DNA from: Clostridia bacterium
GTDB lineage: Bacteria > Bacillota > Clostridia > Christensenellales > UBA1242
Direction of reading: 5' to 3'
DNA: 64,000 bases
Assembly: GCA_017501645.1 (NCBI GenBank)
Contig: JAFVWN010000060.1
Location: 91,063 to 155,062 of the forward strand
The notes under the pieces are model-generated. The model had not been told where the DNA came from, made no database searches, and saw only the letters and a list, made by a program, of their open reading frames with translations. The translations under genes and the position numbers were made by a program. Positions 3,457-31,701 of this stretch are shown here, in pieces (position 1 is the stretch's first letter; each line of letters begins with the position of its first letter).

Positions 3457-3480
3457 AATTACTTCCTAAAACAACCATTT

Positions 3481-3501: not shown

Positions 3502-3516
3502 ATTTGGTTTTATTTA

Positions 3517-4713: not shown

Positions 4714-4778
4714 TATTTCTCCTTTAAATAATAAATATGTCGTGTTTTTTAATTGTTTTTATGTTAATTTTGCGTTTT

Positions 4779-5465: not shown

Positions 5466-5469
5466 ATTG

Positions 5470-7623: not shown

Positions 7624-7624
7624 A

Positions 7625-8017: not shown

Positions 8018-8050
8018 AATTTCTCTTTTTGTTGCTTTTTATATAAGTCC

Positions 8051-8091
8051 ACTATACAACAACATTTTTAAAAGCGAGCTCAAGTGTGACA
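8051..8091 (-). promoter_or_regulatory. Conserved 16-nt element (plus strand GAGCTCAAGTGTGACA, 8076-8091) + -10-like TATAGT (8051-8056), copy 1
   Basis: This is an exact 16-nt match to 11619-11634, and the spacing to the -10-like hexamer is the same 19 nt. It lies about 60 nt upstream of the 8017 start codon. Confidence 0.5.
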
Positions 8092-8107
8092 GTTTTGAGC
8101 AAAAAAA

Positions 8108-9565: not shown

Positions 9566-9757
9566 ATTTTTCCCGCTTTTTTTACTAAAAATATCTACAT
9601 ATGTTTTATTAAAAAAATGCAAAATGAAAATAAAATAGTTAAAAAATCAACAAATATGATGTATTTTTACAAAATATAACAATAAAAATGCATTTTTTTA
9701 TAAATTAAAATATTTTTTTATTAGTGTTTGTTTTATATATTTAGACAAAATACTTTT

Positions 9758-11775: not shown

Positions 11776-11804
11776 TTGGCATAAACGACATAATATGATA
11801 AAAT
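11776..11804 (+). promoter_or_regulatory. Candidate proximal promoter of giant gene: TTGGCA-17-TGaTAAAAT
   Basis: The -35 is at 11776-11781, the TG at 11796-11797 and the -10 at 11799-11804. The UTR would be about 80 nt, with a GGGAG RBS 8 nt before ATG 11890. Confidence 0.45.
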
Positions 11805-11889
11805 AAACTATAGTTATATTTAATATATATTAAATCGTTTGCTCAAACTAATAAAAAAGTTTGGCTTACGAAATTAGGGAGTTTATTTT

Positions 11890-12003
11890 ATGAGCCTTGT
11901 AAAATCCAAAAAAATAGCAAATAAAAAATCATCAAAGTCTTTAGCAAGATTTATTTTAATGCTACTTATTTCATTTGTAAGCATTTTAACTTTTTCTGCT
12001 TGT
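11890..12003 (+). other. Lipoprotein signal peptide with lipobox (..LTFSAC, Cys codon 12001-12003)
   Basis: Positively charged n-region, a 15-aa hydrophobic core, then F-S-A-C. Confidence 0.6.
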
Positions 12004-15000
12004 GATTGGACTAATGACCCAGATACACCTGAGTCTAATTTTGACAAAGATGGAAATCTAAGGATTCAAGCCCCTTATATTCATTTTAATCCCGAAACAA
12101 AAAGTGCCTATGACGACACTTCTATTATTGATGATGTTTCAGGAAGTTTCACTTGGGAACTTGCTTATTTTGTTAATGATGGAACTAAAGATGTAAATTA
12201 TGACCAAACTTACTATCTTGAAAACTATTATACGGACAGTAAGTATGAAAACATTTACAATTACTATGACCACAGTAACGGAATAAAACCAAAATACTTC
12301 TCTACTTCTGCTGATGCTGTAGAACATTTTGGAATATCAAATGTTGAAGGAAGCGGTTCTGGTTTTTACGCAATCGACCAAAGTGATCCTATAGGAACAA
12401 AGCTCATTAAAGTTTATACTCCTGCCGAAAAAATTATAAACGGTAACAAATCTATATCTTTCCCTAGTTTTGAAGTTGTTGTTGATGGTAAGTATTATAC
12501 ATTCAAAGTAACTTTACATCCTTACTACTTAGGCAAAAAGATTTATGAAGAAACTCCGTTTGTGGATAATAGTTTTGATTATGACAAGCGAGAGTTCAAA
12601 GAGATTGATGCTGAGGGTAACCCTGTTAAATCTTTATTCAGTTTTAGCTATAGAGTAGGAAAAGCTTCAACAGGCGCCGGCGATTTCCTCCCTTGCCCTG
12701 ATGGATTTATGACATACTATATTGATGAAGACAACAAGTTTATGATAAGGTTTAATCCTAGACTTGAAGAAGGTTCTACTAATAGATATATTAAGGTTAA
12801 GGCCTTAACAGAAACCGACAATGGAAGAACCAGCTCTCTTTATTCAAACACAGCTTCATATGAAGCTTATACTATGACTTTCTCTGCTTATAGTCCAAAC
12901 TCAACAAGTGTAGATTATGGCTCATTGATTTATGACGAAAGTGATTACTACTTCCACACTGTAAAAAAGGTTTATAACAACAGAACGAAAGAAAATGATA
13001 TTTCTTCAATGGTTGGTGTATTCCCTGAAGGAAGAAGAGTTATTGTTTCTCGACAAATCGAGTTTGCAGACGATTATGATTATGCCCTTCAATCTTGGAC
13101 AATGAATACTAAAGCTGAAAATTCAATATCAATTGCCAATGCTTTTCCATCTACAACTATTGAAGATTCTAAATTTAGTATGCTTGAATATGTTGCCACT
13201 GGTACAGTTGATGATTATTACAAAGATTTATTAAGAATAACAACAAGTGATTCTTGTATTCCAAACGCGAAAAAAACAGGCTCGGAAGCTTTTGCTGAAG
13301 TTGAAAACTTCTATAAAAGCACTGTCTGTACTCAATGTTCAGGAACTGGAATTGATGCATCAAGTGCTTCGTGTGAAAATTGTGGTGGAAAGGGATATGC
13401 TTATCCTAAAGCCCCAACATTTAATTACTATACTAAAGGTCAAATAACTGAATTAAACACTCCTAGTAAGTATGTAAAAGATACCATTTATAATATGTTT
13501 GATAACACAGATAAAATTGTTGCTGTAAGAAGCGACCTTGCAGTAGTATCACACAATAAAGTAAATGGATACAAATTCTATGCAAACTTTGCTAAAGTAA
13601 GAAATTTCTCTTTAAGTGGAACATTCTTTGCTGGAGACAATTTCTTTAACGGAGGAAACCAATATTTAACTGATGTTACAGTTTCTGTTTTTGATAAAAA
13701 AGGAAACAGATTATGTATTAGTAATGTTAATAGAACTTTCAATATTATTCAACTTAATGTAAATGAAGATAAAGATGGCAATGGAGAACCTGATGCAACA
13801 GGAGATAAATTATCTTCTGTTTATAGAGTTAATGACATTAGTTTTATTTTTGATGGTTCTTATTTTACCGTAACTGGACTAGAAATTGGAGACTACTTGA
13901 TGTTTGAAAAAGTTGGTGCTCCCCTACTTGATGACCCAATTTTTGATGACGCAACCAATTTACCTTATGGGTTCCACTCTACTCAAATGGTGAGACTAGA
14001 TATTGCTTCTATTGGTATAAACACTAAAGTCCTTTGTGTAAAAGAAACTGATGATCTTTATACTGATAGACAAGATATAGGAATTATTGGTACTCAATAT
14101 GCTGAAGAAAGTAGCTTGATGGTTAACCTCTATCAAGTTGATGACCTAACTGGTGAAAAAACAGAAGTTGAAGGAGGCATTAAGCTACTAAGCGAAGGCA
14201 ATGTTTCTTATGAAGTTATTAAAAGCGTAAGTTCATATGAAGATAAGTATGGCTACATAACAACTAATATTATTATATCTATATTGCTACCATCAAATGC
14301 GACTTTGGTTGGTTATAATGCTGAAACAGTAAATGATAATCAAGCCGTATATTACTCTTTAGGCAATAAAAATAACGAACCAACATTTATCTTGAAGAGA
14401 ACTTATGATAAGTTAAAACAAGAATATTCAATGAATTTTGAAAAAGATTTATATTCATTCTACACAGTCCCTGTAAATGAAACCGAAGTAACTACAGTAA
14501 CAGCGGGTACATTCGTGTTATATAATGGAGATACTTATTCTTACTCACACAATACAACAAGCGACCTTCCATCAGGTCTTACAACTACCTCATTCTATAA
14601 TAGATTGAATGAACCAAACGAAAATGAATATCAAGTACTTGCAAAAGTTGTTACCGGTTCTTCAACAAGATGGGAGTTAATAAAATACACTAAAGTAGAT
14701 GCATCAAGAATCACTGGAGATATGATGGAAGATGGAACTGGTGCTAGCCAAATTAAGTTCCCTGTGTTCTGTGTTGATGGTGATAGACTTTATCAATATG
14801 AAGGCAAAAACGAAATTGCCAGCGGTGAAGCAAACGAAGTAAGCACTGTAGTTGGTGTTTATAAAACAGAAATGGTTCAATCTACAGCTGATGGCACAAA
14901 TAATATTTATGCATATTATGATGTAAAACAAGCTCACGAAAAAGTTTACTATACATCCCCTATTGCAAAAGAACATTATGTCGAAAGTGACAAGCCCGGC

Positions 15001-18000
15001 GAAGAAGGTTTAATTACTGTTGATATTGCTTACTATTTTGCAGAAATTACAAACTTTGATTCTTTAAAATCAGCAGGCAAAATAATGCTTGGTAGTCAAA
15101 TATTGGCAGGTAGCACTACTCTAGCAAGGCAGTTTAGAGAAGTTCTTGGTGCAAAAATTGTTCAAAGTTGTTATTACTATATTGAACCAATTGGTGAAAC
15201 AATAAACGGTAAAGCACATCAACCAATTACAGTATTGGCAAAACAATACTTGCAAACCATACAAGGTGTTGGACAACAACAAGTTAACACAACCTATTAC
15301 TATAATGATGGTGGGCTTAAAGTTTTTGCCGGTAGTATAAATGGCGCAGATCTAATTGCTAATGATACCGTATTTGCTGCTTATAATATGAATGGCGCAG
15401 TAATTGATTTGGAAAAATATTCAAATATTTCACGAGGAGAAATGTTTGATGCTTCAGGTATTTTAAATTATGATGTTGGTTATAATGTAATACTTGGTGC
15501 ACATAATTATATGTCTTCTCATACAATTGTTGAAACTGATACTCTTGGACCAGAAAATCAAAAACCAGGTTTTATGTTTGTTGAAAATACAGAACAAACA
15601 ATTAATGGTTTAAAAATAAGATATGCATATACTTTATATGAATTAAATCCAGATGGAACAATCTCTTCTACGGCTTTATACTATAATGCAGATGAAGGAA
15701 ATTTTTATAGAATACTTGATACCTACCCTATTTCTTATCCTATTGTTATAGACGAAATTGAAACAATTGAAACAAAAACAATTTGTGAAGTTGAAGAAAA
15801 TACAGGATTTAAAATAGAAGTCAAAAATTCTAGTGGTAATTTACTTGATAGATTTAGAGTTACAAAGATTGCAGGAACATCTACTGTAAAAACTTATACT
15901 CAAGAAGAAAAAGTTGGTACTAGCGTTGTTACTAAAACTTATACAACATATGAAGCATTTTTAGTTCCATCATTCTATGTTACAAACCAAGATGGTAACA
16001 CAGAAACTCAAATATATAATATGGTAAGTGATGGTTCTACTCAATCAGTCCCTTGTACCTTTGCAGTATCTTCAAATCCTGTGTTCAAATATACAGGAAC
16101 TTTAGCTAGTGGTGCTTCTGTTTCATTGATTCCTGAAATCACAACAACTTCTGTTGCTTCAAATGAAACAGCTCTTGTAAGAACTGCTCAAATTGCAAAC
16201 ACAAACACTCAAGTTACAATGCTTGGTAAATATATTCAAACTGGCGATTCAAGTGAACCAATAGTTTACCCATCATTCTCTAATCTTAATAAATGGTCAT
16301 TAGATGAAGCATTCATTTTAAAAGGTAATGGCTCAACCCAAGCAGATATGTTTGACCATTACTATGAACTTGATTATACTAGCAAAAAACTTGTTATTGA
16401 AGGCTTCCCTGGTGTTCGATTGCTTGCGGGTGCTCCATACCCTAACCCTGTAATTTATTTGTCAGTGAGACATAAAAAGACAGAAGATGCAGTTGTTAAC
16501 CTTAGCTTTGATATTAAAAATGCATACTTTGTTGAAATTATGGGTACTCAAATAAAAACAGAGGACTCAAACTTAATAAGAGACTTTACAACCTATGCAT
16601 TTAAAGACACAGTAACAAACTTATCTCTTAATGATTATATTGATAAATCTTATTGGATTTTAGATGCTGTAACATTGAAACCTGTTATTCCTTATATATA
16701 TAAGGATGGAAAATATCAACCAAAACTTGTTGATGAAGATGATAATCCAATTGAATTATCTATTCAAGATGTTGGTCTAAATGAAGATTCAGTAGAACTC
16801 TTCTATTCTGATACAATATCAGCAACTGGCATATATAAAGAAAAAATTTATATGCAGTATGTAAAGAACGATGGAAGTATTGGCTATAAAACTATTAACT
16901 ATGAAGAAGATGTAATTTTGTGGCGTACTGATGCAACAATGGTTGAAAGAGTTCCTATGTATGATATCCACTCTTATACTCAAGGAAAAGACGGAATTAT
17001 ATATTTTGACTCTGGTACTGATACTGACGATAATGTTCTATGTATTGGTCTTGAAGGTATTTCTTCAGGTGCAACTCAACAAGAAGATTCAATGTTTAAC
17101 TATGATAAAGTTCTTGTAAGTGGTGTTACTAGTGCGTATAGAACTAAAACAACCGAACTTAATATTTCGGATTCTATGTATTATGGTTACTGGTTCGATA
17201 AAGGCTTGAATGTAATGAATGCTTATGATAGTAATGATGCGTACTTCTTAAGCGGAAAAGAATCAGTGGTAATTATGGCAAGTCCAACCGTTCAAGTAAA
17301 TGCAGAGAATGGAGACAACTATATATATAGATTTAAAGAGTGGCAAATTTACTCACGATACAACAGTGAAGTTATGTACTACAATAGAGGTTTAACAGAG
17401 AACCTTATTGATAGAGAAAATGCTATTTTAAGATTTTCATCAAATGAAGCTGGCTATTTTGTAATATTACCAGTTTATCAAAGAGTTTATAAGATTGATT
17501 TAGGTACTGCTGTTATTGATGGTGCTATTAACCAAGGTGGAGATATAAGCGTTCTTTATAGCGGTGGTGCAGATGTTGATGTAGAAAATGCAACTAAAGA
17601 AGAGTTATATTTGATTGAATATTTCAAAACCGAATTTAACAATCAAGAGGGCTACTACTACTCTAATATTCTAGGTGCTCCTTACTTATGGTTTACAGGA
17701 GAACTTGATAGAGATACATCAATGCCAATCTTTGAGAAAAAAGAAAACATTTATGCTATAAGATACAACCAAACTTATAAGAGATTTTTATCTACCCATT
17801 CGACCGGTGATATTATTCTCTACTTTGAATTACTTATGAGTGGAGATTATGTTACAGGCGTTAAACCAGTGAGAGTGCTTTCAAATATTGCTGTTGGGTA
17901 CCCAGGCCTTGTTCCTATCGTTAACGACAACGGTCAATATCATATTTGTGGGACAGCATATATAGAAAGTTTTGATGAGTTTAGATTTAAAACAGGTACT

Positions 18001-21000
18001 GCCGTTGATGAAATAGGTCAAACTTATTCTACTAGTGAACCTATGAGATTGAAAGATCTTGTATGTCACACATTTACTGGTGAATTCTTCTATGATTCAA
18101 TATTAAGTGAAACAACTGATAATAGCGTTAGTATTGTTGTTCACTATGATGAAGATTCAAAAAGATTCAGTGGTTTAGACTTAACAACACTTAACTCAAG
18201 GGTTGAAAACGCATTAAAGGCAAGAGATAAATGGTTCTTTACCCCAGTAAAATCATTGCTTGAGTATGTTCTTTATTGGAATATGATTTATAATAGCCAC
18301 ATCTTCTCAGATGCTCAAGTGTTTGAAAAGATTGGTAAAAAGTATGACGGAAACTATCTTGATAATCCAGACTTAGAACAGTTAACATTTAGTTCATTTA
18401 ACTTAAATAATTCTTTAACAGAACCAATAGCAAGAAGTGTTACAAATTATCACACTGTAATGTTTAAGTATAGTGATGATATTATGGTTGGTGAAGACTT
18501 CTACAGAAGCACATACGCTTCTCTTGATGGAGGTGAACTTGCTTATGATGAAGAAGGAAACCTCTACTCTGCTATTCAATTTAAAACTGCTTATATAGAC
18601 AGAGACACAACTGTTAAACTTGTTGCTTCTTCTGGTCACGGCTATCGTGTCGAAGGTTGGTATCAATGTATTTATGATGAAGAAGCTGGTGTTTGGTATA
18701 CAACTGACGAAAAAGTTAAAAATAGTGACAATGTTTACGGTGATGAAATTTTACTTGCTGAATATAATGAAACATTAAAAACTTATTTCTATATAACTCA
18801 ATACTTTGAAGAGCGTGGTGTTGGTAAGATTTACTACTTTGACGAAGAAAAAACCGAAGAGGCTGAAGTTCCTCAAAGAATGCTTGACAAAGTAAGAGGC
18901 TATTTTGTAAATCAAGGCACTGAAACCAATCCAAATTGGATTCAGGTTTATAAAAAAGGTAATGGAGACGAAACTGCCTATTACTATGATAGACAATTCA
19001 GCAGGCTTGTTGATTTGCAAGTTTATAAAGTAGAAGAAAAAAGTTTCTATGAAGCAATAAGAAAAGTTGTTGATGGTGAAAACACTCATTACACATTAAA
19101 CAACATAACTATTTATAGAAAGACTGATGAAGAAGGAAATAATGAGCAATTCTTTAGAACAATGTCAACAGGAAATATTGTAGTTGACGGCAATACACTC
19201 ATTATTAATAAACTTCATAGCAACTTAAGGTATGTAGCTAAATTTATTGAAGTTTATACAGAATACATCTTCGCAGAGCCTCCAGAGGCTTCAGGAATTG
19301 AGGTTAAGGCTGTATACTATACAACTACAGACAATGAAAAAGTTGAACGAGATGGCGAGTTTACAATTATAAGAACAGACTTAGAAGGGCATAATTTAAC
19401 TGGCGAATATCACGCAGACTTCAATGCTCACGGAATTGATGAATCAGTTACTGGCCTTGATGAAAACTTCTTCAATCTTTATGAACAAGAAGAAGCTAAA
19501 ACAGCAGTTGCAAAAGCTGGAAAAACTGGAAACTTAACACCTCAAATTATGAGAACAACCGTAACTAATCCAAATACGGGTAAAACATTTACAAAGTACA
19601 CTGCGGATAGTTACACAAATTACTCAAAACTTCTAAGCGGAGACTTTGGAAGTGATAATAAGGCTTATCTTGTTAACGCAGAAAAAGATGAACTTCTAAA
19701 AGGCGAATTAACGCTTAGAAATATGTATTTTGATGTTCACACAGATGTATATATTGTTGTTGGCGTAAAATCAGATGCCGAATTAACTGTTCACTCACTT
19801 GGCTTCTCCCCTTCTTATAATATTGAACCAATCATTGAACCAAGCGAGGAATTTATTAATCACAACCAATCAGCTGACGCTGACGAAAAATATGATTATT
19901 TGTATTATATGTTCAAAATATCATATGATAGAAATCCTCAAAACCCATTAGCGCCTTATGAAGTGCATTCAAAAAGATATACTTCTATCGCAAGTGATGT
20001 TCTTGCAGGTAACTACACAGAATTTTATCAAAATCACTTTGATATTTATGATAACTTTGGTAATCGTATTAATTATCAGTCAATTGCAAATACAGAAAAC
20101 AATACTGGAAGAAAAGTTAGATTATCTTCATATTTACAAACTTTAAGAAATAAAAAAATCATTTCAAATGAAATTTATGCAAAGTATAGTTCGGAGATAT
20201 TTGATAATGTACGAGATTGTTTAGAGGCTGTAAGTAGAGAAGCAAAAAATCCGGGACTTCTATATGTTGATTACGCTATTGCTAAAAATGGCGAAGTTGA
20301 TGAAGAAGGTAATGCTATTATTTTAAGATCTGCGGATGACATCTTTAGGGCTGTTAGAGATATAAAAGTCAAAGACCCAGATGACCCAGATAAAATGATT
20401 TATTATTTCAAGACACCAAGATTAATAAGAACTGGCTCACAAAATACTGTTAACTTGTCATCTATTCCTATTTATAGTTATACAATTCAAGCTGTTACAG
20501 TAGATGATTATACTTATGATAAATCTGGAAATCTTGTATTTACAGAACCTGAAGAAGTTGAAGTACCTAAAGACTTAGAAGAAGGCGAAGAAGTGCCAGA
20601 CCCAGAAGAACCAAGACTTATTTTAAACAATAGTAAAAAACATTTCTTGAAAAACACAATTTACACTGCTGCCGGAACTAATAAGTATACTTATCTTGGC
20701 TACGGAGATTTGTTTGAGCTCCCTACTCCACTTATTTATGTTGATGATAAATATAGTGAAAATGTAGAACTTCACTTTAAGGATAGTTATATTAATCTTG
20801 AATATGGTGAGGAAAATGAAGATAAGACAATACTTGCAGACCTTCCAATTGCAGCCAACACAATTATGTTGCTCGAAGGTGCAGATATGGCACAAGAAGG
20901 TTATGCTTTTGTTGGTTGGTTTGAGCAAAAGTATAATAAGAAAAGCAATGTTTGTCTTTATAAAGACCAATACAACTGTACTTGTTCCCCAGATGTAGAG

Positions 21001-24000: not shown

Positions 24001-27000
24001 AGTTCTAGAAATGATGTTGTATATGAATTTGGTACTGGAGATAGTGCAATTAAAGGAACTGTTGATAATGGTTCAAAGGCTATAAAAGTTCCTGCAATTT
24101 CACAATTTACAGTTACAGCTACTAGCCCAGCATATGGAAATGGTGGCGAAATTTATTATAAGTTTGTTGGTTGGTATAATGGTGGTACATTAATCACAAC
24201 AGATTTAGTGTTAACAGAAGCAAAAGCTTCAGGAAAAATAGTATTTGGTACAAATATAAACCTAACAGCAAGATATGTTGCGGTTGTAAACAATATTACA
24301 ATCAATAGAGTATTTGATGGTTCAACACCAGATATTGAAAAAGCAAATGCTCTTGAGGTTAGTGCAACTGCTAATTTCTATAGAAACAACATAAATACTG
24401 GTACCGGTGATATCAAATTGTTTACTCTTGCAATTGAAGATGGTAAAACTTCAGCGCAAGACGAACTTATTGTTGCTAATCAAAAAGTTATTTTGATAGC
24501 CACTCACCTAGCTGGTTATGATTTTGTTGGTTTTGAAGTTGTCCAAGGCGAGTTATTAGATGATGGTGCATATGTAACAAACAGCTTTAATACTGTAAAA
24601 CATATTACTCCTGCCCCATGTCAATCTCTAGTAATAAATGCAATATATAAAGAAAAAACATATTCTGTAAACTATGTGGTTACATCTTATAACAGTACAT
24701 CAAATGAAGGTGGAGCTATCTCTAACTATACCGAATATGTTGGTCCAAGCGAAACATCAATTTCATTTGCTATATCAAATGCAAGTTTTAAAGCTTATAT
24801 TAACGGAAATGCTGTTTCTCACTACTCTACTGGCGGAACATATACAATAGCAATTCCAAGTTCTTGTAGAAATTGCGATTTGACAGTTGAATTAAGGTAT
24901 ATTGCATCGGAATCATATTCAACAATTAATGCAGGTTCAGGAAAGAGTTGGTTTGTAAAAGATGCTCACGAAGAGATGTATGCAATTTCTCATATGAGTA
25001 ATCTAAAAATTCTTTCAAGCGATTATGCTAAACTCAATTTAGTTTCAGCTAAAGACCCTTATTCAGGTACTCTATTTAATACAACTTATAGAATTGATTA
25101 TTATGATGGAAACACTACGAATCCTGTTTCAAGCTCTGCAGTAACAACAAATAAACCAACCGACAAAATAATTGTTGGTGCAGACAACAAAAAATATGTA
25201 TTTGAAGGATATTGGGCAAGAATTGGTACTGCTTCATCATATACATTTATCAAAGTTGGAAGCACAATTGATGCAAATGTTGGTGGATATTGGTCAAATA
25301 TTATTGCTAAATATAGAAGAGTTGAAGAGGTAAACCTCACTCCTTCTGTAAAAGGTGCGAGTCATACCGTTTCATATGTAAGAACTCCATTTGCTATAAA
25401 CCCAACTTATGTTAATACTGCTATTGGTGATGGAAGTCAATCTACATATTATGCATTTGTAAGTGGCTCTAACTTGACACTCAGTGTTAATCCAAAAACA
25501 GCATTAGATATTTCAACAAAGAAAGCAACTTATGTTTTAGTTGATGGAATAACAACTTCTTATAGTTCAAGAATTGATTCAATTATTGATTCTTATACTC
25601 TAGCAAGAAACAATGTTCAAACAACTATAAACTTGCTTGGAACAAAAATAAATGGAGCTGTATGTTCTATCTCTGCAAACACAGGAAAAACAGCAATTCC
25701 AAGAACTGCCTCAACAAACGGAGTTGGAGACTCTGTGGCAATAAATCCTATTAATGAAGAAATTAATCTATCTCTCAGCATCAATGTAACTGGTGCTGAA
25801 GAGGTAGATAGAATTTCTACAATGTATGTAAATATCTATTCTACTGATGGTACATACTATGAACCTTTAGCTATAACTAAAGCAACCGGAATAACGACAA
25901 TCACTGTTAAAACGGGTAGCACAATTTCATTAAGTTATAGCATTGGTGACCACAAACAATTCTTGTATTATTCAATAGCTGGAGTTCAATATAAAGACAT
26001 TACTTATAACTATACAATAGCCGATGGCTACGGCTCAAATATAACTATTGTTGGTTATTTTACAGGAAAGTATACTGCTTCTATTGAAGAGAATGATACA
26101 ACAAAGGGTGTTGCTTCATTGATGCAAACGACATCAACATCCTCAACATACAACCTTTCAATAACTAATAAAGATAGCTTTATGATTTCAGGAATCTACT
26201 TTGCAACAGTTGAAAGTGGTAATGATGGAACTTATGATTATTCTCCATTGTTCTTAAACAGTTTACATCTTAGCTATTCAAATAAGCAGTTGTCATCAAT
26301 CTCTGGAATGGTTAGTTCAGTTTCTTACACATTTATAAAATCTTCTCCAGATGATGACAGTAAAACATATAATACTGCCCTAACCTTAAGATTTACAGCA
26401 TTAGACAATGTTGTTATCAAGATTGAATATATGCATGTAACAAAACTCATAATTGAGGTTAAGGAAAAGAATGCCGTTCAAGGTCAATACACATTCTATT
26501 TGAGTGAATTTGCAGACCCTGAATTAAAAGTGGCTGATGAATTGACTTTAGAAAAACTCAAGGCGAGAATTGATGGAATTTCAAGTGCTACACTAAGAGA
26601 TGCGCTAGTGTATCTACCTGAAGATTTGTGTACATTCTCATTTGAGGGAAATACCTTTGATGACACAGTGTCAATCAATCACACTAAGAGAGATAATGTG
26701 CTAGTTACTCTTAATAGATTAACTCAAGTTGAGGTTACTGTTTATATAATTATGAATTTTGAAAAGACTGACGGAGGTGCAAATTTATATAACACACCAA
26801 AAGAAGGATTGCAAATTTCATATGATGACACTACTGTAGCAAAATATAATAGTTCAACAAAGTTTACTTATGTATCAGCAAAATCAAAACCAATAGTAGC
26901 CGAAGATACAAATGGTTTCTTTAAATTTGATGGTTATTATGTTGGTGATGACAAAGAGGAAGATTTACAAATCTCAAGTTCGAGTGACTATGTTCTTCTT

Positions 27001-30000
27001 TCTACAGACTTTGGTGGTACAAAGTTTAAAAAGCAAGCTGATGGTTCATATGCTGTTTACGCAATATTTACAGAAAGTTTATTAACCATCACAATTGATG
27101 CCGACTTTGGTAATAATCAAGCATCATTTGCGATTTCTCAAACAGATACCGAAGACGGTTATAAGAATTTCACCGAAACAAAACAAACATTATCCTTTGT
27201 TAACGCAAGCGGTGAAGATATAGGAAACTTGACATATTTCTTTAACACAGAAACTGAGCAGTATGAAATGACCTACCCTGCCAGCCTTGTTAAAAATAGT
27301 ACTCAAATTTACATTAAAGCAATTGACTTTGACGAAGAAGTAACTGATGATGTTTATATTACTGAAGTTTTATCTGCTCAAGGTATAACTAAGTTCTATC
27401 AAAAGACAATAAAAACAGAGGGTAACTCAGTTGATAATGAATATTATAGATTCTATAGATTCGTTGATGCGGGCGGATTGATGGTTGGTAATCTATACAC
27501 AAACTTTACAGCTGTCGACCTTGGAGGTTACGAGACAGGTACAAGCCTTACTGCAGAAACCAAAGAGCTTTATATGATTGAGTACACATATAACTATTTA
27601 CCTGATTTGTTCTATATTGATATGACAATGACTGTTCTAAAAGGTTCAACATTGTCTACAATCACAATAGGAACAACACAAGGTCAATCATATAAAGAAT
27701 TTGATAAAGCACTTATAAGATATCTTGCAGAAAAAGATATGAACATAACCGTTGGTACACACTTCTTACCTGGATATGATTACGCTTTGTATGCAGATTT
27801 TGAATCAATTGTATACTCAAAGAGTGTAATGATTAGTGATATACTACTCAAAGAAGGTAATGAGTATGTTCTTGGCGAAAACGGAGTCCCTGGAACACCA
27901 ACTAAACTTCACAATAAAGATAATGTTGCACCTTGCGGATATTATATTGATACCGCAAAAGAATATTGGGATACACTACTCAATGAAGGAGTAACCGGTG
28001 TTTATACAGCTAAGTTCCTCCCTGTTGCAAATTATTACAAGAGTGAAAATGCATATTCAAAATTTGAATCATTCAACTTCTTAGCAAAAGAAAATACTTC
28101 TTTTGTTGCAGACTTCTATAATATTGCACAAAATATTAAATATTTCATATTCTCTATTCTTTCAAACTATGATTATGATGGATTTGTGAATAATGAATTT
28201 AAGACTTCTGGTCACGATTTCAAAGTGTCATTCAGTTCTGGAAAAATGGGACTTGGTTATTTCTTCACAATTACCGCTGCTAATACTGATTATGAAATAA
28301 CTACTCAAGCCCCATTAACAAAGGACCTTGATTCAGGAAAAACTAGAAATTATGCTCAAGACTTCTTTGATGATGAGGCAAGTATAAAAGCAGAAGATGA
28401 TTCATCTCTTGTAAAAATAACACCATATTTCAAAAATAGTCCTTTTGATGAAAGAATTCGTGCTGAACTTCAATATAAAGGAACAACACATGCTATTACA
28501 ACAGACAAATCTGCAAGTGATTTACAATATTCACAAACTAATATCCATATGATGATTAGTAATGTAGCATATCTTGACTTCTCGGCATTAAAACTTATTA
28601 AACACTATCAAGAAGAAGGAATTTTATACGGTTCTAACGGAATGCCAGAAAAAGAAACAAAAGATGCATTGTCGTATTATGTTGAGGGAGATATTCCTAC
28701 ATATAAAAACTACAATGATTATATTGTCAAATATGAACAAAAACCATATGCATATAGCGGAATTGGTTATAAAGTAAAAGCAGAAATTATTGAAGGTTAC
28801 TATTTTAAAGGCTTTATAATGGTAAGTTCTGGGTATGATGCGACCTATGACTTAATGGGCTTTGGTGGAGAAACAGTAAGACCTACAGGCAAAACATTCA
28901 CCTATATCCCACACAAAATGAATACAGATATTGACGAAGATGGTAATGAATATTATACTTCTGCTGAAACTGTAGACTTCTTTACATTGGAGTATGCAAC
29001 AAAAATATATGCTCTTTATGAAGCAAGAGTATATGTAATTAATGTTAGCACTTTTGAGTTCAAAGAAGACAATGAAAAACTTTATGCTGAACACAACTCA
29101 GGTGAGCAAAAAGGTGAAATTGATAACGAAAAATCAATGATGACTACACTTGATGTTGAGTCTTCAATAATTAAAGGTTCATTAATTGTTGAACACGGTG
29201 AAGATGCGAAATTAACTTCTCAAAACTTGCTATTTATGCAATTTGTTGGTTGGGCAACCACTAAAGAATTTGATAATGATAGTTTATCTTATGACGACAA
29301 ATTCAAAGTTGCATTTGATACAGGTTTGGGGCTTAAAGGAAATTATGATTTGCATGTTGATGAAGAACACTTAACCACTCTTAAATATAATGATGTTAAA
29401 GTTGGTTACTATGATAAAGATGGTGCTTATCACGGAGATATTCAAGGTTATAATGTTGAAAAAGATGAGTTTGCAGTATCAACAGCAAGAAACAATATTT
29501 ATATCTATGATATGAATAGAGATATAGATATTATTGCCTACTATACTTATATTTCATATAGAATTACTATTAATTTAGCAGACATTATACCAACATACTA
29601 TTATGCAGATAAATATGCAACTGATCTTCGAGGAACAACAACCTACCTCACCTATCCAGATTATATAAGAGAGACACCAGGATGGACGAACCCTTCTGCT
29701 GGTACTTATAATCAATCTTGGGATTGGGGCACAAACGAATTAAATGAACGAGAATTTACTAGCAGTGTATACATTGACTCTCACGACCCTTATGTTTACA
29801 CTTATGTTGATAATGAAGGTAATGCATTAACTTACCCTACAAAAATCCAATATAGTCTTATAGATATTTCAAAGAGCCAACAAACTGGCAATTTGGTTTA
29901 TAAAAAGATAAGTAAATCAGGAACATATCAAAATGTATTATGTGCAAAAAAATACGGAGCAGGTACTCCTCTTCCTTACTATGATAGAGCTGAAGATATT

Positions 30001-31701
30001 AAAAAATATCTAGATGTTGATACTTTAGATGGTTATAACTTTGATCAAGTTTACAGAAATGGTTATTCTTATAACCAAGCAGAGTATGTTACAACAAATA
30101 CTGCAGGAAAAATCAAACTTGATGAAAATGGAAAATTGATTCCAAAATTAAATAACATATTTAACTATGTAAACATTAATAAAGTTGGAACAACAACTGT
30201 TGCTACAGTTAAAGATAATCTTTTTGAAATCACTGTTGATGGAGAAAAAGTACCTGTTTCCGATTTCATTGATGTTGAAATTGACACAGCATTAGGAACA
30301 GTTAAATTTGATATAAAAGTTAGAGCTTCTAAGACAGGTTTGCCTGATGTTAAAATCACAATGAATAAAAAGACTGGTATAAATGGTGTTACAGCCCATA
30401 CTATTGAGGTAACAAAAAGTAATGACCACACTGTTAAGAGAGGTCCAACAATTTCAACAACTGTTAAAGGATTTAACCTTGAAGCATTTAGTAATAGTGA
30501 TTTTATGACCGACCCTAACTACGAATTACCAGACTTAGATGTTGGATTAATTCTTAAGTGGCAAGAAAAAGCCATAGCAATTGATACAACTGTAAAAATT
30601 TCTGGCAAAGAGGTACACTTAAGTGGCGAACAATCATTAAAAGCAGATCTATCTTCATTGAAGTGTCAAACACATAAGTATTGTAGTAAGTGTAAAGGAC
30701 TAAAAAATGCTGCAACTTGTCAAGATTATGAAATTATGGCTTATTTCATAGTTGTTGTTGAAAATGGTTTATATTATCAATATTTACTTGAAGATCTCTT
30801 GGGCAATAGTAAATTAACCAAGAAAGACAAAGAAAACCTTAATAACTACATTGCAGCATTCCTAGGGGAAACTCCAGGAAACACAACAGATACTGGTGCT
30901 GTATATAATGTTGCAGACAGGTCAACTGGAAACTTCTTGGATAGCGATACAAGAAAAGGAATTTTAAGTATTTTAAATAAATATTATGACAACAGGTTTG
31001 CAGGAATTAGTCATAATGATATCTTAAAATACAAAGTGTATGATACTTTCCACAACTTTAGAGAAGGTGTAAACATCAACTTCTACCCTGTTATAATGAA
31101 TACTCAAGATATGATCCTCAATATGCCTCTTCTTCAAGAACACGCTAGAGGACAACATAATAACTGGCCAGAAAATTGGAAATTCCCATTAACAGGCGAT
31201 AAAGGTTTCAACTATTACAGAAATGCATATACTGGATATCATTCAAATATTGATACAGGTCTAATGAAGTTCGTTTCATACGAGAATTACAATTGTACTC
31301 CAGATGACAATAAAGACAAAGTTGGTTTATGGAAAAAGTTTACAAACTATGTTACAGGTATCTATAATGGTGCAAAAAAATATGCAGCAACATATCATAG
31401 ACTGCTTCACAGTATGTTAGTTTTAGACTCTTCGATTAATATGGATAGACTTGTTACTCTCGGTGCATCTTTAACAATTACGGTAAATACCTCTCCAGAA
31501 CAAGACACTAAATCTATAATTCTTAGTGGCTTGCATGACTGGGAAGTAATCCCAATTCAAAATGCAGCACACGCTTTTTGGGAGATTACAACTGGAGGAA
31601 TAGCTGTAACCCTTATCAAGTTTATTATTGTAAAATGTGTTGACAGCGAAGCTTCATTATTCGACAAGATTGCAAACCAAAACCATTGGGGTATGTATTA
31701 G
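11890..31701 (+). CDS. Giant (6,603 aa) predicted surface lipoprotein with degenerate Listeria-Bacteroides / InlB-B-type repeats and Cys clusters
   Basis: The frame is 19,812 nt and uninterrupted in AT-rich DNA. The N-terminus MSLVKSKKIANKKSSKSLARFILMLLISFVSILTFSAC has a K-rich n-region, an h-region and a lipobox Cys38. There are at least 12 Y/F-x-F-x-G-W/F motifs. Confidence 0.9.
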   Translation: MSLVKSKKIANKKSSKSLARFILMLLISFVSILTFSACDWTNDPDTPESNFDKDGNLRIQAPYIHFNPETKSAYDDTSIIDDVSGSFTWELAYFVNDGTKDVNYDQTYYLENYYTDSKYENIYNYYDHSNGIKPKYFSTSADAVEHFGISNVEGSGSGFYAIDQSDPIGTKLIKVYTPAEKIINGNKSISFPSFEVVVDGKYYTFKVTLHPYYLGKKIYEETPFVDNSFDYDKREFKEIDAEGNPVKSLFSFSYRVGKASTGAGDFLPCPDGFMTYYIDEDNKFMIRFNPRLEEGSTNRYIKVKALTETDNGRTSSLYSNTASYEAYTMTFSAYSPNSTSVDYGSLIYDESDYYFHTVKKVYNNRTKENDISSMVGVFPEGRRVIVSRQIEFADDYDYALQSWTMNTKAENSISIANAFPSTTIEDSKFSMLEYVATGTVDDYYKDLLRITTSDSCIPNAKKTGSEAFAEVENFYKSTVCTQCSGTGIDASSASCENCGGKGYAYPKAPTFNYYTKGQITELNTPSKYVKDTIYNMFDNTDKIVAVRSDLAVVSHNKVNGYKFYANFAKVRNFSLSGTFFAGDNFFNGGNQYLTDVTVSVFDKKGNRLCISNVNRTFNIIQLNVNEDKDGNGEPDATGDKLSSVYRVNDISFIFDGSYFTVTGLEIGDYLMFEKVGAPLLDDPIFDDATNLPYGFHSTQMVRLDIASIGINTKVLCVKETDDLYTDRQDIGIIGTQYAEESSLMVNLYQVDDLTGEKTEVEGGIKLLSEGNVSYEVIKSVSSYEDKYGYITTNIIISILLPSNATLVGYNAETVNDNQAVYYSLGNKNNEPTFILKRTYDKLKQEYSMNFEKDLYSFYTVPVNETEVTTVTAGTFVLYNGDTYSYSHNTTSDLPSGLTTTSFYNRLNEPNENEYQVLAKVVTGSSTRWELIKYTKVDASRITGDMMEDGTGASQIKFPVFCVDGDRLYQYEGKNEIASGEANEVSTVVGVYKTEMVQSTADGTNNIYAYYDVKQAHEKVYYTSPIAKEHYVESDKPGEEGLITVDIAYYFAEITNFDSLKSAGKIMLGSQILAGSTTLARQFREVLGAKIVQSCYYYIEPIGETINGKAHQPITVLAKQYLQTIQGVGQQQVNTTYYYNDGGLKVFAGSINGADLIANDTVFAAYNMNGAVIDLEKYSNISRGEMFDASGILNYDVGYNVILGAHNYMSSHTIVETDTLGPENQKPGFMFVENTEQTINGLKIRYAYTLYELNPDGTISSTALYYNADEGNFYRILDTYPISYPIVIDEIETIETKTICEVEENTGFKIEVKNSSGNLLDRFRVTKIAGTSTVKTYTQEEKVGTSVVTKTYTTYEAFLVPSFYVTNQDGNTETQIYNMVSDGSTQSVPCTFAVSSNPVFKYTGTLASGASVSLIPEITTTSVASNETALVRTAQIANTNTQVTMLGKYIQTGDSSEPIVYPSFSNLNKWSLDEAFILKGNGSTQADMFDHYYELDYTSKKLVIEGFPGVRLLAGAPYPNPVIYLSVRHKKTEDAVVNLSFDIKNAYFVEIMGTQIKTEDSNLIRDFTTYAFKDTVTNLSLNDYIDKSYWILDAVTLKPVIPYIYKDGKYQPKLVDEDDNPIELSIQDVGLNEDSVELFYSDTISATGIYKEKIYMQYVKNDGSIGYKTINYEEDVILWRTDATMVERVPMYDIHSYTQGKDGIIYFDSGTDTDDNVLCIGLEGISSGATQQEDSMFNYDKVLVSGVTSAYRTKTTELNISDSMYYGYWFDKGLNVMNAYDSNDAYFLSGKESVVIMASPTVQVNAENGDNYIYRFKEWQIYSRYNSEVMYYNRGLTENLIDRENAILRFSSNEAGYFVILPVYQRVYKIDLGTAVIDGAINQGGDISVLYSGGADVDVENATKEELYLIEYFKTEFNNQEGYYYSNILGAPYLWFTGELDRDTSMPIFEKKENIYAIRYNQTYKRFLSTHSTGDIILYFELLMSGDYVTGVKPVRVLSNIAVGYPGLVPIVNDNGQYHICGTAYIESFDEFRFKTGTAVDEIGQTYSTSEPMRLKDLVCHTFTGEFFYDSILSETTDNSVSIVVHYDEDSKRFSGLDLTTLNSRVENALKARDKWFFTPVKSLLEYVLYWNMIYNSHIFSDAQVFEKIGKKYDGNYLDNPDLEQLTFSSFNLNNSLTEPIARSVTNYHTVMFKYSDDIMVGEDFYRSTYASLDGGELAYDEEGNLYSAIQFKTAYIDRDTTVKLVASSGHGYRVEGWYQCIYDEEAGVWYTTDEKVKNSDNVYGDEILLAEYNETLKTYFYITQYFEERGVGKIYYFDEEKTEEAEVPQRMLDKVRGYFVNQGTETNPNWIQVYKKGNGDETAYYYDRQFSRLVDLQVYKVEEKSFYEAIRKVVDGENTHYTLNNITIYRKTDEEGNNEQFFRTMSTGNIVVDGNTLIINKLHSNLRYVAKFIEVYTEYIFAEPPEASGIEVKAVYYTTTDNEKVERDGEFTIIRTDLEGHNLTGEYHADFNAHGIDESVTGLDENFFNLYEQEEAKTAVAKAGKTGNLTPQIMRTTVTNPNTGKTFTKYTADSYTNYSKLLSGDFGSDNKAYLVNAEKDELLKGELTLRNMYFDVHTDVYIVVGVKSDAELTVHSLGFSPSYNIEPIIEPSEEFINHNQSADADEKYDYLYYMFKISYDRNPQNPLAPYEVHSKRYTSIASDVLAGNYTEFYQNHFDIYDNFGNRINYQSIANTENNTGRKVRLSSYLQTLRNKKIISNEIYAKYSSEIFDNVRDCLEAVSREAKNPGLLYVDYAIAKNGEVDEEGNAIILRSADDIFRAVRDIKVKDPDDPDKMIYYFKTPRLIRTGSQNTVNLSSIPIYSYTIQAVTVDDYTYDKSGNLVFTEPEEVEVPKDLEEGEEVPDPEEPRLILNNSKKHFLKNTIYTAAGTNKYTYLGYGDLFELPTPLIYVDDKYSENVELHFKDSYINLEYGEENEDKTILADLPIAANTIMLLEGADMAQEGYAFVGWFEQKYNKKSNVCLYKDQYNCTCSPDVECECEDHECEFGKEGWSELTLMSNELEHPYLTLSTADTVIVAVYKKVVDVSITYDNREMNIELPTGNMDSLGKDVLITVDDTKHTTTISGKFYFDTYQQFIVSPVGGYRFDGFEYQVSKDGEWSAVYTTGYDDKHIHYIDRNNEVKDHYDISLNSVIGVSYAMSECIVECEKHKDPYEKVRITIKAKKITLVHIEVENFYAFNEGEYTFSGWNFALYDIGLQHGSEPQLIVKTINSEDQEKIEVLLEYNDQVREGKSGEKSFHHYYVKDSAGNLVQGNIDQGTLKLYGYFDVEMSGNLLLVAFDGSSVIRKWYINGHPNTTDTYENLSSYGIPEQRKSFAAQFDAAFNIHFHYPESIDNGKGSTIDYNTNNYFALDKDNDVYYARAVIEAASSVTITHTFIESIEGDGATRVGVEAGTGSYSSVQAYSILAYNGSFSYIDGAGNMVTENNGTFAVKNKGEYKFSEDTTLNISVQAEFITIDGKLYKFLGWFDSYGTAGSASSYIISREMSLSAMEPKGVYEAKYVRVHRVELDYNAFGQIEVDPYNEIEALSPDYNQNVPTEVFGYYDGGHYYIMSGAELIINAYATEGYVLPDFTVTPLEDAPGELKHETEDNIDYLKLTVHEVDRAVRVSANFDEGYDITINQMLHSSVDMAQDAEYLSTVYSYITYRDRELKTTRYAVPKNSTVKFSVKGEEAEENEFPEYFFLGWYIDDVLMSRDITSGAILYDYEHTLTKDLVIEARFVPYVNVVVSSRVVGINTTVNKFAYTMTYKDLRTNTECTYSKTTQISLPMGLVVNLVANDENVSNAYEFVGWKMMQGTTVLKTFASEKDANITLSSDLIQNDKIYIYALYGRKTTLNLYKNITIREEDRATYLVNGELSDEFMSMFDLVVEYIDIFGNTKTIRLGANESILDISASQYTSVKIKYEMSNVVADRYYLDNILVKSSGNTKYTYTATYFEDQEWQTVSLSSNVSMNITATFKPSSAITIATELNGTKQDIFSSRNDVVYEFGTGDSAIKGTVDNGSKAIKVPAISQFTVTATSPAYGNGGEIYYKFVGWYNGGTLITTDLVLTEAKASGKIVFGTNINLTARYVAVVNNITINRVFDGSTPDIEKANALEVSATANFYRNNINTGTGDIKLFTLAIEDGKTSAQDELIVANQKVILIATHLAGYDFVGFEVVQGELLDDGAYVTNSFNTVKHITPAPCQSLVINAIYKEKTYSVNYVVTSYNSTSNEGGAISNYTEYVGPSETSISFAISNASFKAYINGNAVSHYSTGGTYTIAIPSSCRNCDLTVELRYIASESYSTINAGSGKSWFVKDAHEEMYAISHMSNLKILSSDYAKLNLVSAKDPYSGTLFNTTYRIDYYDGNTTNPVSSSAVTTNKPTDKIIVGADNKKYVFEGYWARIGTASSYTFIKVGSTIDANVGGYWSNIIAKYRRVEEVNLTPSVKGASHTVSYVRTPFAINPTYVNTAIGDGSQSTYYAFVSGSNLTLSVNPKTALDISTKKATYVLVDGITTSYSSRIDSIIDSYTLARNNVQTTINLLGTKINGAVCSISANTGKTAIPRTASTNGVGDSVAINPINEEINLSLSINVTGAEEVDRISTMYVNIYSTDGTYYEPLAITKATGITTITVKTGSTISLSYSIGDHKQFLYYSIAGVQYKDITYNYTIADGYGSNITIVGYFTGKYTASIEENDTTKGVASLMQTTSTSSTYNLSITNKDSFMISGIYFATVESGNDGTYDYSPLFLNSLHLSYSNKQLSSISGMVSSVSYTFIKSSPDDDSKTYNTALTLRFTALDNVVIKIEYMHVTKLIIEVKEKNAVQGQYTFYLSEFADPELKVADELTLEKLKARIDGISSATLRDALVYLPEDLCTFSFEGNTFDDTVSINHTKRDNVLVTLNRLTQVEVTVYIIMNFEKTDGGANLYNTPKEGLQISYDDTTVAKYNSSTKFTYVSAKSKPIVAEDTNGFFKFDGYYVGDDKEEDLQISSSSDYVLLSTDFGGTKFKKQADGSYAVYAIFTESLLTITIDADFGNNQASFAISQTDTEDGYKNFTETKQTLSFVNASGEDIGNLTYFFNTETEQYEMTYPASLVKNSTQIYIKAIDFDEEVTDDVYITEVLSAQGITKFYQKTIKTEGNSVDNEYYRFYRFVDAGGLMVGNLYTNFTAVDLGGYETGTSLTAETKELYMIEYTYNYLPDLFYIDMTMTVLKGSTLSTITIGTTQGQSYKEFDKALIRYLAEKDMNITVGTHFLPGYDYALYADFESIVYSKSVMISDILLKEGNEYVLGENGVPGTPTKLHNKDNVAPCGYYIDTAKEYWDTLLNEGVTGVYTAKFLPVANYYKSENAYSKFESFNFLAKENTSFVADFYNIAQNIKYFIFSILSNYDYDGFVNNEFKTSGHDFKVSFSSGKMGLGYFFTITAANTDYEITTQAPLTKDLDSGKTRNYAQDFFDDEASIKAEDDSSLVKITPYFKNSPFDERIRAELQYKGTTHAITTDKSASDLQYSQTNIHMMISNVAYLDFSALKLIKHYQEEGILYGSNGMPEKETKDALSYYVEGDIPTYKNYNDYIVKYEQKPYAYSGIGYKVKAEIIEGYYFKGFIMVSSGYDATYDLMGFGGETVRPTGKTFTYIPHKMNTDIDEDGNEYYTSAETVDFFTLEYATKIYALYEARVYVINVSTFEFKEDNEKLYAEHNSGEQKGEIDNEKSMMTTLDVESSIIKGSLIVEHGEDAKLTSQNLLFMQFVGWATTKEFDNDSLSYDDKFKVAFDTGLGLKGNYDLHVDEEHLTTLKYNDVKVGYYDKDGAYHGDIQGYNVEKDEFAVSTARNNIYIYDMNRDIDIIAYYTYISYRITINLADIIPTYYYADKYATDLRGTTTYLTYPDYIRETPGWTNPSAGTYNQSWDWGTNELNEREFTSSVYIDSHDPYVYTYVDNEGNALTYPTKIQYSLIDISKSQQTGNLVYKKISKSGTYQNVLCAKKYGAGTPLPYYDRAEDIKKYLDVDTLDGYNFDQVYRNGYSYNQAEYVTTNTAGKIKLDENGKLIPKLNNIFNYVNINKVGTTTVATVKDNLFEITVDGEKVPVSDFIDVEIDTALGTVKFDIKVRASKTGLPDVKITMNKKTGINGVTAHTIEVTKSNDHTVKRGPTISTTVKGFNLEAFSNSDFMTDPNYELPDLDVGLILKWQEKAIAIDTTVKISGKEVHLSGEQSLKADLSSLKCQTHKYCSKCKGLKNAATCQDYEIMAYFIVVVENGLYYQYLLEDLLGNSKLTKKDKENLNNYIAAFLGETPGNTTDTGAVYNVADRSTGNFLDSDTRKGILSILNKYYDNRFAGISHNDILKYKVYDTFHNFREGVNINFYPVIMNTQDMILNMPLLQEHARGQHNNWPENWKFPLTGDKGFNYYRNAYTGYHSNIDTGLMKFVSYENYNCTPDDNKDKVGLWKKFTNYVTGIYNGAKKYAATYHRLLHSMLVLDSSINMDRLVTLGASLTITVNTSPEQDTKSIILSGLHDWEVIPIQNAAHAFWEITTGGIAVTLIKFIIVKCVDSEASLFDKIANQNHWGMY
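13327..13395 (+). other. DnaJ-type zinc-finger pair CTQCSGTG-x8-CENCGGKG inside giant protein (aa 480-502)
   Basis: There are two exact matches to the CxxCxGxG motif of the DnaJ cysteine-rich domain. Confidence 0.5.

Follow-up and report, generated by a model that had tools for sequence, protein, structure and literature searches.

The window analysed here is a stretch of 64,000 nucleotides from contig JAFVWN010000060.1 of a Clostridia bacterium (assembly GCA_017501645.1). It contains a single gene of 6,603 codons, referred to below as the giant gene, which encodes a product of ~730 kDa. Two genes follow it on the same strand, one for a membrane protein (orf636) and one for an M16 metallopeptidase. 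After these the opposite strand carries the genes for a single-stranded DNA-binding protein (SSB), a polysaccharide deacetylase (PDA) and an acidic membrane protein (orf961), followed by gyrA, gyrB and then housekeeping genes; these neighbours show the window to be chromosomal. On the other side, a gene for a sigma-70 region-4 protein diverges from the giant gene, and beyond it lie orf360 and a phage-like module. The features are listed in Table 1. An earlier note on this DNA had described a gene for a predicted lipoprotein. That description stands in part; what it missed was the context, namely the probable operon with orf636 and M16 and the insertion beside a phage-derived module near gyrBA.

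Table 1. Features of the giant gene and its surroundings (window positions; aa, amino acid residues; HMM, hidden Markov model; TM, transmembrane)
Feature	Position	Strand	Remarks
Giant gene	11890..31701	+	ATG start; 6,603 codons and stop
Shine-Dalgarno AGGGAG	11876..11881	+	8 nt upstream of the ATG; read from sequence
Promoter-like TTGGCA-17-TAAAAT with TG extension	11776..11804	+	Indistinguishable from chance
Predicted lipoprotein-type signal peptide, aa 1-38	11890..12003	+	K-rich n-region, h-region aa 21-34, T-F-S-A-C
Lipobox Cys38	12001-12003	+	Read from sequence
N-terminal ~2,860 aa (aa 39-2900)	12004..20589	+	Best conserved, non-repetitive; HMM, alignment and library scans
DnaJ-like CXXCXGXG zinc-finger-like insertion, aa 480-503	13327..13398	+	Sub-threshold matches; lineage-specific
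Most conserved block, aa 1500-1900 (alignment A1)	16387..17589	+	Exclusive to giant family
Diverged tandem beta domains, aa ~2960-5100	20767..27189	+	Y-x-F-x-G-W signatures; motif and HMM self-similarity
C-x-C-rich cluster, aa 3022-3045	20953-21024	+ (inside giant gene)	Lineage-specific insertion
Modelled segment, aa 3690-4250	22957..24639	+	Five ~110-aa beta domains, 16-20-residue linking strands
Conserved C-terminal domain, aa 6255-6562	30652..31575	+	Family motifs; no known family
C-terminal hydrophobic segment, aa 6563-6584	31576..31641	+	Putative membrane anchor, Kyte-Doolittle 1.86; 19-aa tail after it
orf636	31731..33641	+	Signal peptide, SH3b-like repeats, C-terminal TM helix; 29 nt past giant-gene stop
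M16 metallopeptidase	33650..34966	+	HFFEH intact at aa 44; no signal peptide; 8 nt past orf636
SSB, 238 aa	35199-35915	-	Pfam SSB domain at aa 105-196 only; ~100-aa N-terminal extension
orf961	36935-39820	-	~730-aa highly acidic low-complexity N-terminal part, one TM helix, ~200-aa C-terminal part
Sigma-70 region-4 protein, 221 aa	10875..11540	-	Divergent from giant gene; ancestral locus; Pfam 1e-6
orf360	9792-10874	+	Signal peptide, SH3b-like, TM-anchored
Phage-like module	1-9622, running on left of the window; L039:2930-19204	-	TerL, portal, scaffold-like gene, major capsid protein

An uninterrupted frame and its family

No stop codon interrupts the frame of the giant gene; in the five remaining frames of this DNA the stops number 370, 403, 447, 495 and 942. 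At the lowest stop rate among these alternatives (5.6% per codon), the random chance of 6,603 open codons is ~e^-380. The sole additional open reading frame (ORF) of at least 150 aa inside the gene is 152 aa long and lies on the reverse strand (20623..21081). The earlier note had called the frame single, uninterrupted and coding, with no other ORF inside it above 152 aa. All of this is borne out, the coding status by the open frame together with the collinear full-length homologues described below. The G+C content of the gene and of its flanks is alike (0.32-0.335). A promoter scan upstream of the gene returned 8 sites against 6.6 +/- 2.5 in shuffled sequences, which is no excess.

The identical 6,603-aa product is called on a 166-kb ENA scaffold (XIEF21-1_SAMN15830035 scaffold_65) and on a 26-kb Logan contig, and a contig from a separate study (SRR31077498) carries the last 1,298 aa of the protein, also identical. 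These matches bear on a reading that attributes the ORF to faulty assembly, to a gene call that fuses separate genes or to a pseudogene in decay. Such a reading can point to the source, a short-read metagenome scaffold, and to the general proneness of giant genes to mis-assembly. Self-BLAST of the giant protein, however, reveals no internal repeats, so that there is nothing there to collapse in assembly. A second assembly calls the same product, at least 23 full-length orthologues are collinear with it, one cluster has 46 members of near-identical length, and a frame of this length is not expected to stay open by chance. The artefact reading is effectively refuted already and keeps next to no probability; the giant ORF is almost certainly a genuine single gene.

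A search with the first 5,000 residues returned 23 further proteins of 6,320-7,181 aa, all unnamed and 26-43% identical. A MAFFT alignment of all 24 members is collinear end to end. Its top-conserved blocks lie at aa 1500-1900, 2200-2500 and 2600-2700. Identity reaches 95% or more in 317 columns, most of which hold G, Y, F, D, N or P, and 277 of these fall within the first 3,500 residues. One cluster at 90% identity contains 46 members of 6,422-6,428 aa from independent assemblies, and no name is attached to any cluster of the family. When the block at aa 1500-1900 was searched exhaustively with HMMER against 1.84 billion representative proteins, 44 matched. The complete proteins among them span 6,320-7,789 aa, and the short ones resemble contig-truncated fragments. 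Since the matches are essentially all giant, this core is exclusive to giant proteins.

Among species-representative genomes, the same block was detected in 20 metagenome-assembled genomes. All are uncultured gut Clostridia, with contigs up to 721 kb, from human, rabbit, roe deer and other sources; their taxonomic labels are those of NCBI (Clostridia, Clostridiales or Christensenellaceae). A scan of genome contigs with a narrower alignment (A3) returned two loci only. Judged by the alignment, the giant protein is a member of a small conserved family whose length is held at ~6,300-7,800 aa, and not an isolated oddity. Taken together, the matches place an open frame, conserved end to end at 26-43% identity, in about 40 species-level lineages, and on this distribution the giant gene is confined to essentially one clade of uncultured gut Clostridia. 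The comparison of orthologues and neighbourhoods that the earlier note had proposed thus yields 23 full-length homologues and a shared gene order. Its statement that the protein falls in no named adhesin or toxin family also agrees with the Pfam, NCBIfam, homologue and PDB-sequence searches, none of which gives a covering family. Literature searches did not find a description of the family. Three distant core relatives (L022, L023 and L024) have a frame that is open over the whole 21.7-kb locus (>7,250 aa); their core block lies more than 3,300 aa from the N terminus, and therefore still larger family members exist.

The rate of change along the locus is uneven. In a comparison with the closest relative (L124), identity is 96% for GyrB, 94% for GyrA, 89% for PDA and 79% for M16, and it falls to 75% for SSB, 72% for orf636 and 61% for the giant protein (over the C-terminal 3,355 aa). 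On these identities the giant protein changes at many times the rate of the housekeeping proteins encoded beside it, yet its frame, length and collinearity are preserved. A surface protein that is exposed and still under selection would be expected to behave in this way.

The giant protein from end to end

The N terminus of the giant protein reads MSLVKSKKIANKKSSKSLARFILMLLISFVSILTFSAC(38)DW. Seven lysine or arginine residues precede the h-region, and there are three to seven in nearly all members. The N-terminal Kyte-Doolittle window (aa 15-41) scores 2.17, and a hydrophobic h-region is present in 23 of 24 members. The core of the PROSITE PS51257 lipobox is {DERK}(6)-[LIVMFWSTAG](2)-[LIVMFYSTAGCQ]-[AGS]-C, and SFVSILTFSAC of the giant protein fits it. 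Across the family, 22 of 24 members match the core with a cysteine at positions 15-39, and chance matches number 6 in 156,277 other residues. All three elements named in the earlier note, the K-rich n-region, the hydrophobic core and the lipobox, are present and conserved.

In the whole giant protein only two windows are hydrophobic, aa 15-41 and aa 6563-6584. Within the last ~130 residues, 21 of 24 members have a hydrophobic segment, often 40-55 residues long, and almost none have one in mid-protein. The absence of a convincing C-terminal TM segment, as first noted, is revised on these grounds. A C-terminal hydrophobic anchor is likely at the level of the family, and the giant protein may have a tether at each end and not at the N terminus alone. 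None of the 24 members has LP.TG within its final 80 aa, in agreement with the earlier note, and the tail beyond the hydrophobic segment is acidic or neutral, unlike the basic tail of LPXTG anchors. The proposal of an N-terminal lipid anchor with about 6,500 residues outside the cell is upheld in part: the conserved lipobox and the pilin- or adhesin-like central fold described below fit an outside location, while lipidation is a prediction and a second, C-terminal tether is likely.

The region at aa 39-2900 has no match in Pfam, NCBIfam or PDB sequences. Profiles of the conserved core (A1) and of the C-terminal domain (A2) gave nothing below E = 0.4 against PDB sequences. When ten 800-aa tiles of the giant protein were scanned with Pfam and NCBIfam, only sub-threshold, chance-level matches appeared, and those to a DnaJ zinc finger, HECT, coproporphyrinogen oxidase, RhoGEF and phage TTP were rejected at that level. 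HExxH, HxxEH, GDSL and RGD motifs were not found in the giant protein, and the earlier observation that it has no catalytic motif holds. The conserved C-terminal domain contains the motifs YRVID..Y, LQEH, W-x-ADKGY-x-YY, GTYNR and D-Y-x-P-x-P-x-x-N.

Weak internal repeats are confined to aa ~2960-5100 and are detected by window HMMs only. The signature Y-x-F-x-G-W occurs in 11 copies between aa 3005 and 5637, ten of them inside this array and the eleventh at aa 5637. An AlphaFold2 (AF2) model of aa 3690-4250 is confident (pLDDT 83.1, pTM 0.61) and all-beta. Foldseek comparison of the model with the PDB returned PitA (2e-9) and SpaC (2e-7) as well as RrgB, Spy0128, PitB and SpaD. These pilin and adhesin matches span 2e-9 to 1e-4 with a probability of 1.0, at 8-14% identity and global TM-scores of ~0.2. 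In the model, then, the central third is a string of Ig-like beta-sandwich domains as in Gram-positive pilins and adhesins, and the resemblance is one of fold only.

Among the full-length members (n=24), the precomputed Pfam matches are to Flg_new or Flg_new_2 only, in 5 proteins. Tiles of the giant protein itself reach 18.7 bits for Flg_new (cut-off 27) and 12.7 bits for Flg_new_2 (cut-off 23.6), both below threshold, and neither model matches its aa 3690-4250 at E <= 0.01. The aligned orthologous segments match Flg_new_2 in 5 of 16 cases (best 3e-5) and Flg_new in 2 of 16 (best 1.3e-7).

Two cysteine-rich insertions, at aa 480-503 and aa 3022-3045, are both missing from the closest homologue (P0002). 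The first of them sits in a gap-rich, poorly conserved region of the alignment.

The surrounding locus

No terminator-like site was found between the giant gene, orf636 and M16, and from their spacing and order the three genes form a probable operon. Three other loci (L042, L124 and L125) repeat the order giant gene, orf636 and M16, then SSB and PDA on the opposite strand, to gyrA where the contig reaches; a fourth (L043) repeats the first three genes, after which its contig ends. M16 is present in all five giant loci with a visible downstream region and had no match in the inspected loci that lack the giant gene. This pattern of occurrence suggests a dedicated processing role for the peptidase.

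The phage-like module is ~16 kb in size. Past the window edge it continues with genes for a 793-aa tail protein and a 665-aa tail-fibre protein and a holin-like gene, and RNase J marks its boundary. No integrase or replication gene was seen in these ~16 kb. Relatives of its TerL, detected with a profile, occur in more than 581 species-level genomes, many of which bear the label Christensenellaceae. Among the best 80 loci, TerL is 62-81% identical and the gene order of the module is constant. Where the contig suffices, the layout is gyrB, gyrA, (PDA, SSB), a slot on the opposite strand (slot X), the sigma-70 region-4 gene, orf360 and TerL. The giant ORF is absent from 49 module loci in which at least 4.5 kb is visible upstream. 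In loci without it (L065, L066, L068, L090 and others), slot X is occupied by a 600-960-aa signal-peptide protein, without M16. That protein weakly resembles the C-terminal part of orf636 (25%, E = 3e-6). In three loci gyrA directly abuts TerL.

On the TerL tree, 13 of 14 true giant-bearing loci form one clade without any giant-less genome inside it. TerL is as conserved (63-69% identity) as GyrB (62-67%). Because the module is widespread and mostly lacks the giant gene, and because the giant loci cluster on the TerL tree, the giant gene and M16 are, on this distribution, a clade-specific insertion into an older conserved locus. The order portal, TerL, orf360, sigma, giant gene is syntenic in at least 15 species-level genomes. 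Since synteny extends over the whole region, with gyrA, SSB and PDA included, the adjacency of giant gene and module is inherited and is not a sign of shared function. No relative of the giant core was found among the 2.9 million contigs of IMG/VR, and Pfam phage-domain matches in the giant protein are sub-threshold and at chance level only. The giant gene as phage cargo or as a tail fibre, a candidate prompted by TerL, portal and major capsid protein, was rejected on the distribution, the TerL tree and IMG/VR.

The module itself looks like a vertically inherited, domesticated element resembling a gene transfer agent (GTA). GTA-like DNA packaging has been described in Christensenellaceae, with no gene cluster named there (PMC12946183). 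The module is a candidate for that packaging system. The sigma-70 region-4 protein contains the region-4 helix-turn-helix only and bears the PHROG label 'transcriptional regulator'. Its gene is kept between the module and slot X with or without the giant gene, and the protein may regulate the module side, the slot X side or both. Two further observations concern the module loci. In L010:1653-2994, TerL appears as two overlapping tblastn pieces in different frames, which is either a frameshift (module decay) or an assembly error. A giant-less genome carries another large ORF of at least 1,912 aa (L092:15613-21348, + strand) that runs off the locus end downstream of TerL, in a position unrelated to that of the giant gene.

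Proposed role and rival readings

The best full explanation of these results is, probably, that the giant protein is a membrane-tethered surface fibril or adhesin. That the product is exported and tethered to the membrane at the cell surface is very likely on the features of its sequence; that the role is adhesion specifically is put forward tentatively, as somewhat short of probable. The precursor would be exported by Sec, and Cys38 would be diacylglyceryl-modified and cleaved by signal peptidase II, which would hold the N terminus at the outside of the cytoplasmic membrane. The N-terminal part of ~2,900 aa, conserved and free of repeats, would then serve as a functional module, binding or structural, and at least 25 diverged beta domains would make up a long stalk. 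The C-terminal domain and the hydrophobic segment would provide a second membrane attachment, and the whole would extend, as a tethered fibril or loop of great length, through the wall and past it. Its most likely role would be adhesion or surface architecture, in contact between cells or of cells with particles or mucus. The products of orf636, with SH3b-like repeats of the wall-binding type, and of M16, which would be cytoplasmic, are probable accessory factors; M16 could process the short tail, which would lie in the cytoplasm if the C-terminal hydrophobic segment spans the membrane. Bacterial proteins of at least 5,000 aa are mainly nonribosomal peptide synthetases and polyketide synthases (NRPS/PKS) or surface attachment proteins (PMC11573180). 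Since Pfam scans detected no NRPS/PKS domain in the giant protein or its homologues, the surface-attachment reading is consistent with this division.

Several observations weigh against the fibril reading. The lipobox has a phenylalanine at -3, and Cys38 lies just outside residues 15-35, the range that the PROSITE lipoprotein rule allows for the cysteine. It is a marginal miss: the cysteine is at 33-36 in most homologues, and Cys38 falls slightly past the range because the n-region is long. The segment at aa 6563-6584 is short, with two lysines in it, and its equivalent in several homologues is amphipathic and not clearly membrane-spanning. The AF2 model of aa 1500-1900 is poor (pLDDT 51.6), and a Foldseek search with it found nothing (E > 0.1, TM < 0.1), so that the most conserved half of the protein is without an interpretable fold. 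What the pilin-like match identifies is a generic class of fold, common to phage tail and decoration proteins as well (Foldseek, viral library, gut phages). Finally, adhesion is derived from architecture alone.

The same architecture could belong to an envelope scaffold with no adhesive role. Anchored at both ends, such a megaprotein would give order or spacing to the wall or to an outer surface layer instead of binding ligands outside the cell. Hydrophobic segments at both extreme ends, a family length kept at ~6,300-7,800 aa and conserved residues that are overwhelmingly structural would all suit a scaffold. So would the neighbours: orf360, orf636 and orf961 each encode an envelope protein anchored in the membrane, and two of the three have SH3b-like repeats of the wall-binding type. 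The gene is found in one clade only, however, and sister lineages with the same locus manage without it, which argues that it is not a core envelope component. It also evolves much faster than its housekeeping neighbours, as ligand-facing proteins and those exposed to immune systems or phages do, and we regard the scaffold as unlikely. A delivered effector or polymorphic toxin, with the beta-rich body as a delivery stalk and the C-terminal ~310 aa as the active module, is improbable. Contact-dependent toxins commonly combine giant size with an N-terminal export signal, and the C-terminal domain has polar residues and motifs (LQEH, W-x-ADKGY, GTYNR) that are conserved throughout the family and belong to no known family. 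In polymorphic toxins, on the other hand, the C-terminal tip is variable or swappable and is followed by a small immunity gene, whereas here the C terminus is collinear and orthologous in all members and leads into a putative hydrophobic anchor, with a membrane protein of 636 aa encoded directly downstream. Pfam, NCBIfam and homologue searches gave no Rhs/YD, LXG, haemagglutinin or pretoxin domain, and a search with the A2 profile, which returned one fragment and missed known members, placed the C-terminal domain in no other architecture.

The neighbourhood raises the question of whether the giant protein is functionally part of the phage-derived element (GTA-like or prophage), as a giant fibre, a receptor-binding protein or cargo. 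The syntenic order from portal to giant gene in at least 15 species-level genomes, the sigma-like regulator that lies between module and giant gene, and the match of the central fold to gut-phage tail and decoration proteins would speak for this. Yet the module stands beside gyrBA in 49 inspected genomes that lack the giant gene, relatives of its TerL occur in more than 581 species, and it encodes a tail protein, a tail-fibre protein and a holin of its own. Nor is a signal for Sec and signal peptidase II compatible with assembly on particles inside the cytoplasm. The IMG/VR contigs yielded no relative of the giant core, and a synteny that takes in gyrA, SSB and PDA explains the adjacency by vertical inheritance. 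A functional part in the element is thus improbable. A looser coupling of the giant lipoprotein to GTA-like particles, through shared sigma-like control and with the protein as a clade-specific docking or recipient-recognition structure or as a shield, is a speculation to which we give only a slim chance; if true, a surface megaprotein would govern which cells exchange DNA.

The fibril reading leads to a comparison with known surface proteins. With Gram-positive pilins and MSCRAMM-type adhesins (PitA, SpaC, RrgB, Spy0128 and SpaD) the giant protein shares a predicted chain of Ig-like beta-sandwich domains, an extracellular rod; its likeness to tandem CnaA/CnaB-type Ig-like domains is by Foldseek fold resemblance only. 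Sortase-assembled pilins are polymers of subunits, whereas the giant protein is one polypeptide of 6,603 aa with an N-terminal lipobox, without LPXTG and without sequence similarity to them. It resembles the Listeria-Bacteroides repeat and the InlB B-repeat (PF09479 and PF18998, the Flg_new and Flg_new_2 models) in the Y-x-F-x-G-W signature, and some orthologous segments match the models. Its own copy, however, is below cut-off, its repeats cover at most one third of the protein, and its units are ~105-120 aa long compared with 65-73 positions in the Pfam models.

Staphylococcal surface proteins of the Ebh/Embp type combine giant size and an N-terminal export signal with a C-terminal membrane-spanning anchor and a rod of many small domains, and in Ebh the rod consists of dozens of near-identical FIVAR/GA helical repeats behind a YSIRK signal. 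The giant protein shares the size class, the export signal with a putative C-terminal anchor and the multi-domain rod. Unlike Ebh, it is all-beta where modelled, lacks sequence-level repeats and FIVAR/GA matches, and has a lipoprotein signal instead. FIVAR/GA, RTX, Rhs and LXG domains were not found in it. In its proposed mode of action the giant protein is comparable to the giant fibrillar surface proteins known from Gram-positive bacteria, yet it stands outside every named family. New here are, as far as the sequence tells, the predicted lipoprotein N-terminal anchor, the probable second anchor at the C terminus, the lack of sequence-level repeats and a large conserved region that matches no known fold. 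The usual anchoring solutions are LPXTG or type I secretion, from which the likely double-ended anchoring differs.

Among other giant genes, those of Omnitrophota are likewise rare, very long metagenomic ORFs, mostly extracellular by prediction and implicated in attachment. The Omnitrophota giants have numerous TM regions and mostly SecA-DEAD domains, and a Clostridia example consists primarily of RCC1 repeats (bioRxiv 10.1101/2023.11.21.568195), whereas none of these features is present in the giant protein. The closest analogue in lifestyle and size is the set Giant1-5 of Apilactobacillus kunkeei, a small-genome, host-associated Firmicute; PMC12863079 describes them as extracellular, elongated, largely unannotated, fast-evolving and clade-restricted proteins of 3,000-8,000 aa. 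They are encoded by five consecutive genes, and Giant1-4 have an N-terminal beta-solenoid like that of serine-rich repeat proteins (PMC12863079). By that description they are set apart from the single gene with a lipobox found here, and none of them appeared among the homologues in the sequence and HMMER searches.

Bacterial attachment to hosts, to food particles and to other bacteria is governed by giant surface proteins. The present family turns up again and again in gut metagenomes of humans, rabbits and ruminants, with single 90%-identity clusters of 46-70 member sequences. An unnamed 20-kb gene whose ~2,900 best-conserved residues contain no known domain therefore represents a sizeable blank in the surface biology of the gut microbiome, and the strict 1:1 collinearity makes the family well suited to tile-wise structure prediction.

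Two of the neighbouring genes deserve a brief comment. The SSB gene is kept beside PDA and gyrA throughout the clade. The C-terminal ~200 aa of orf961 would be outside the membrane, and the length of its relatives ranges over 365-961 aa. It is the fastest-evolving gene of the region, with 49% identity to its counterpart in L124 where GyrA has 94%.

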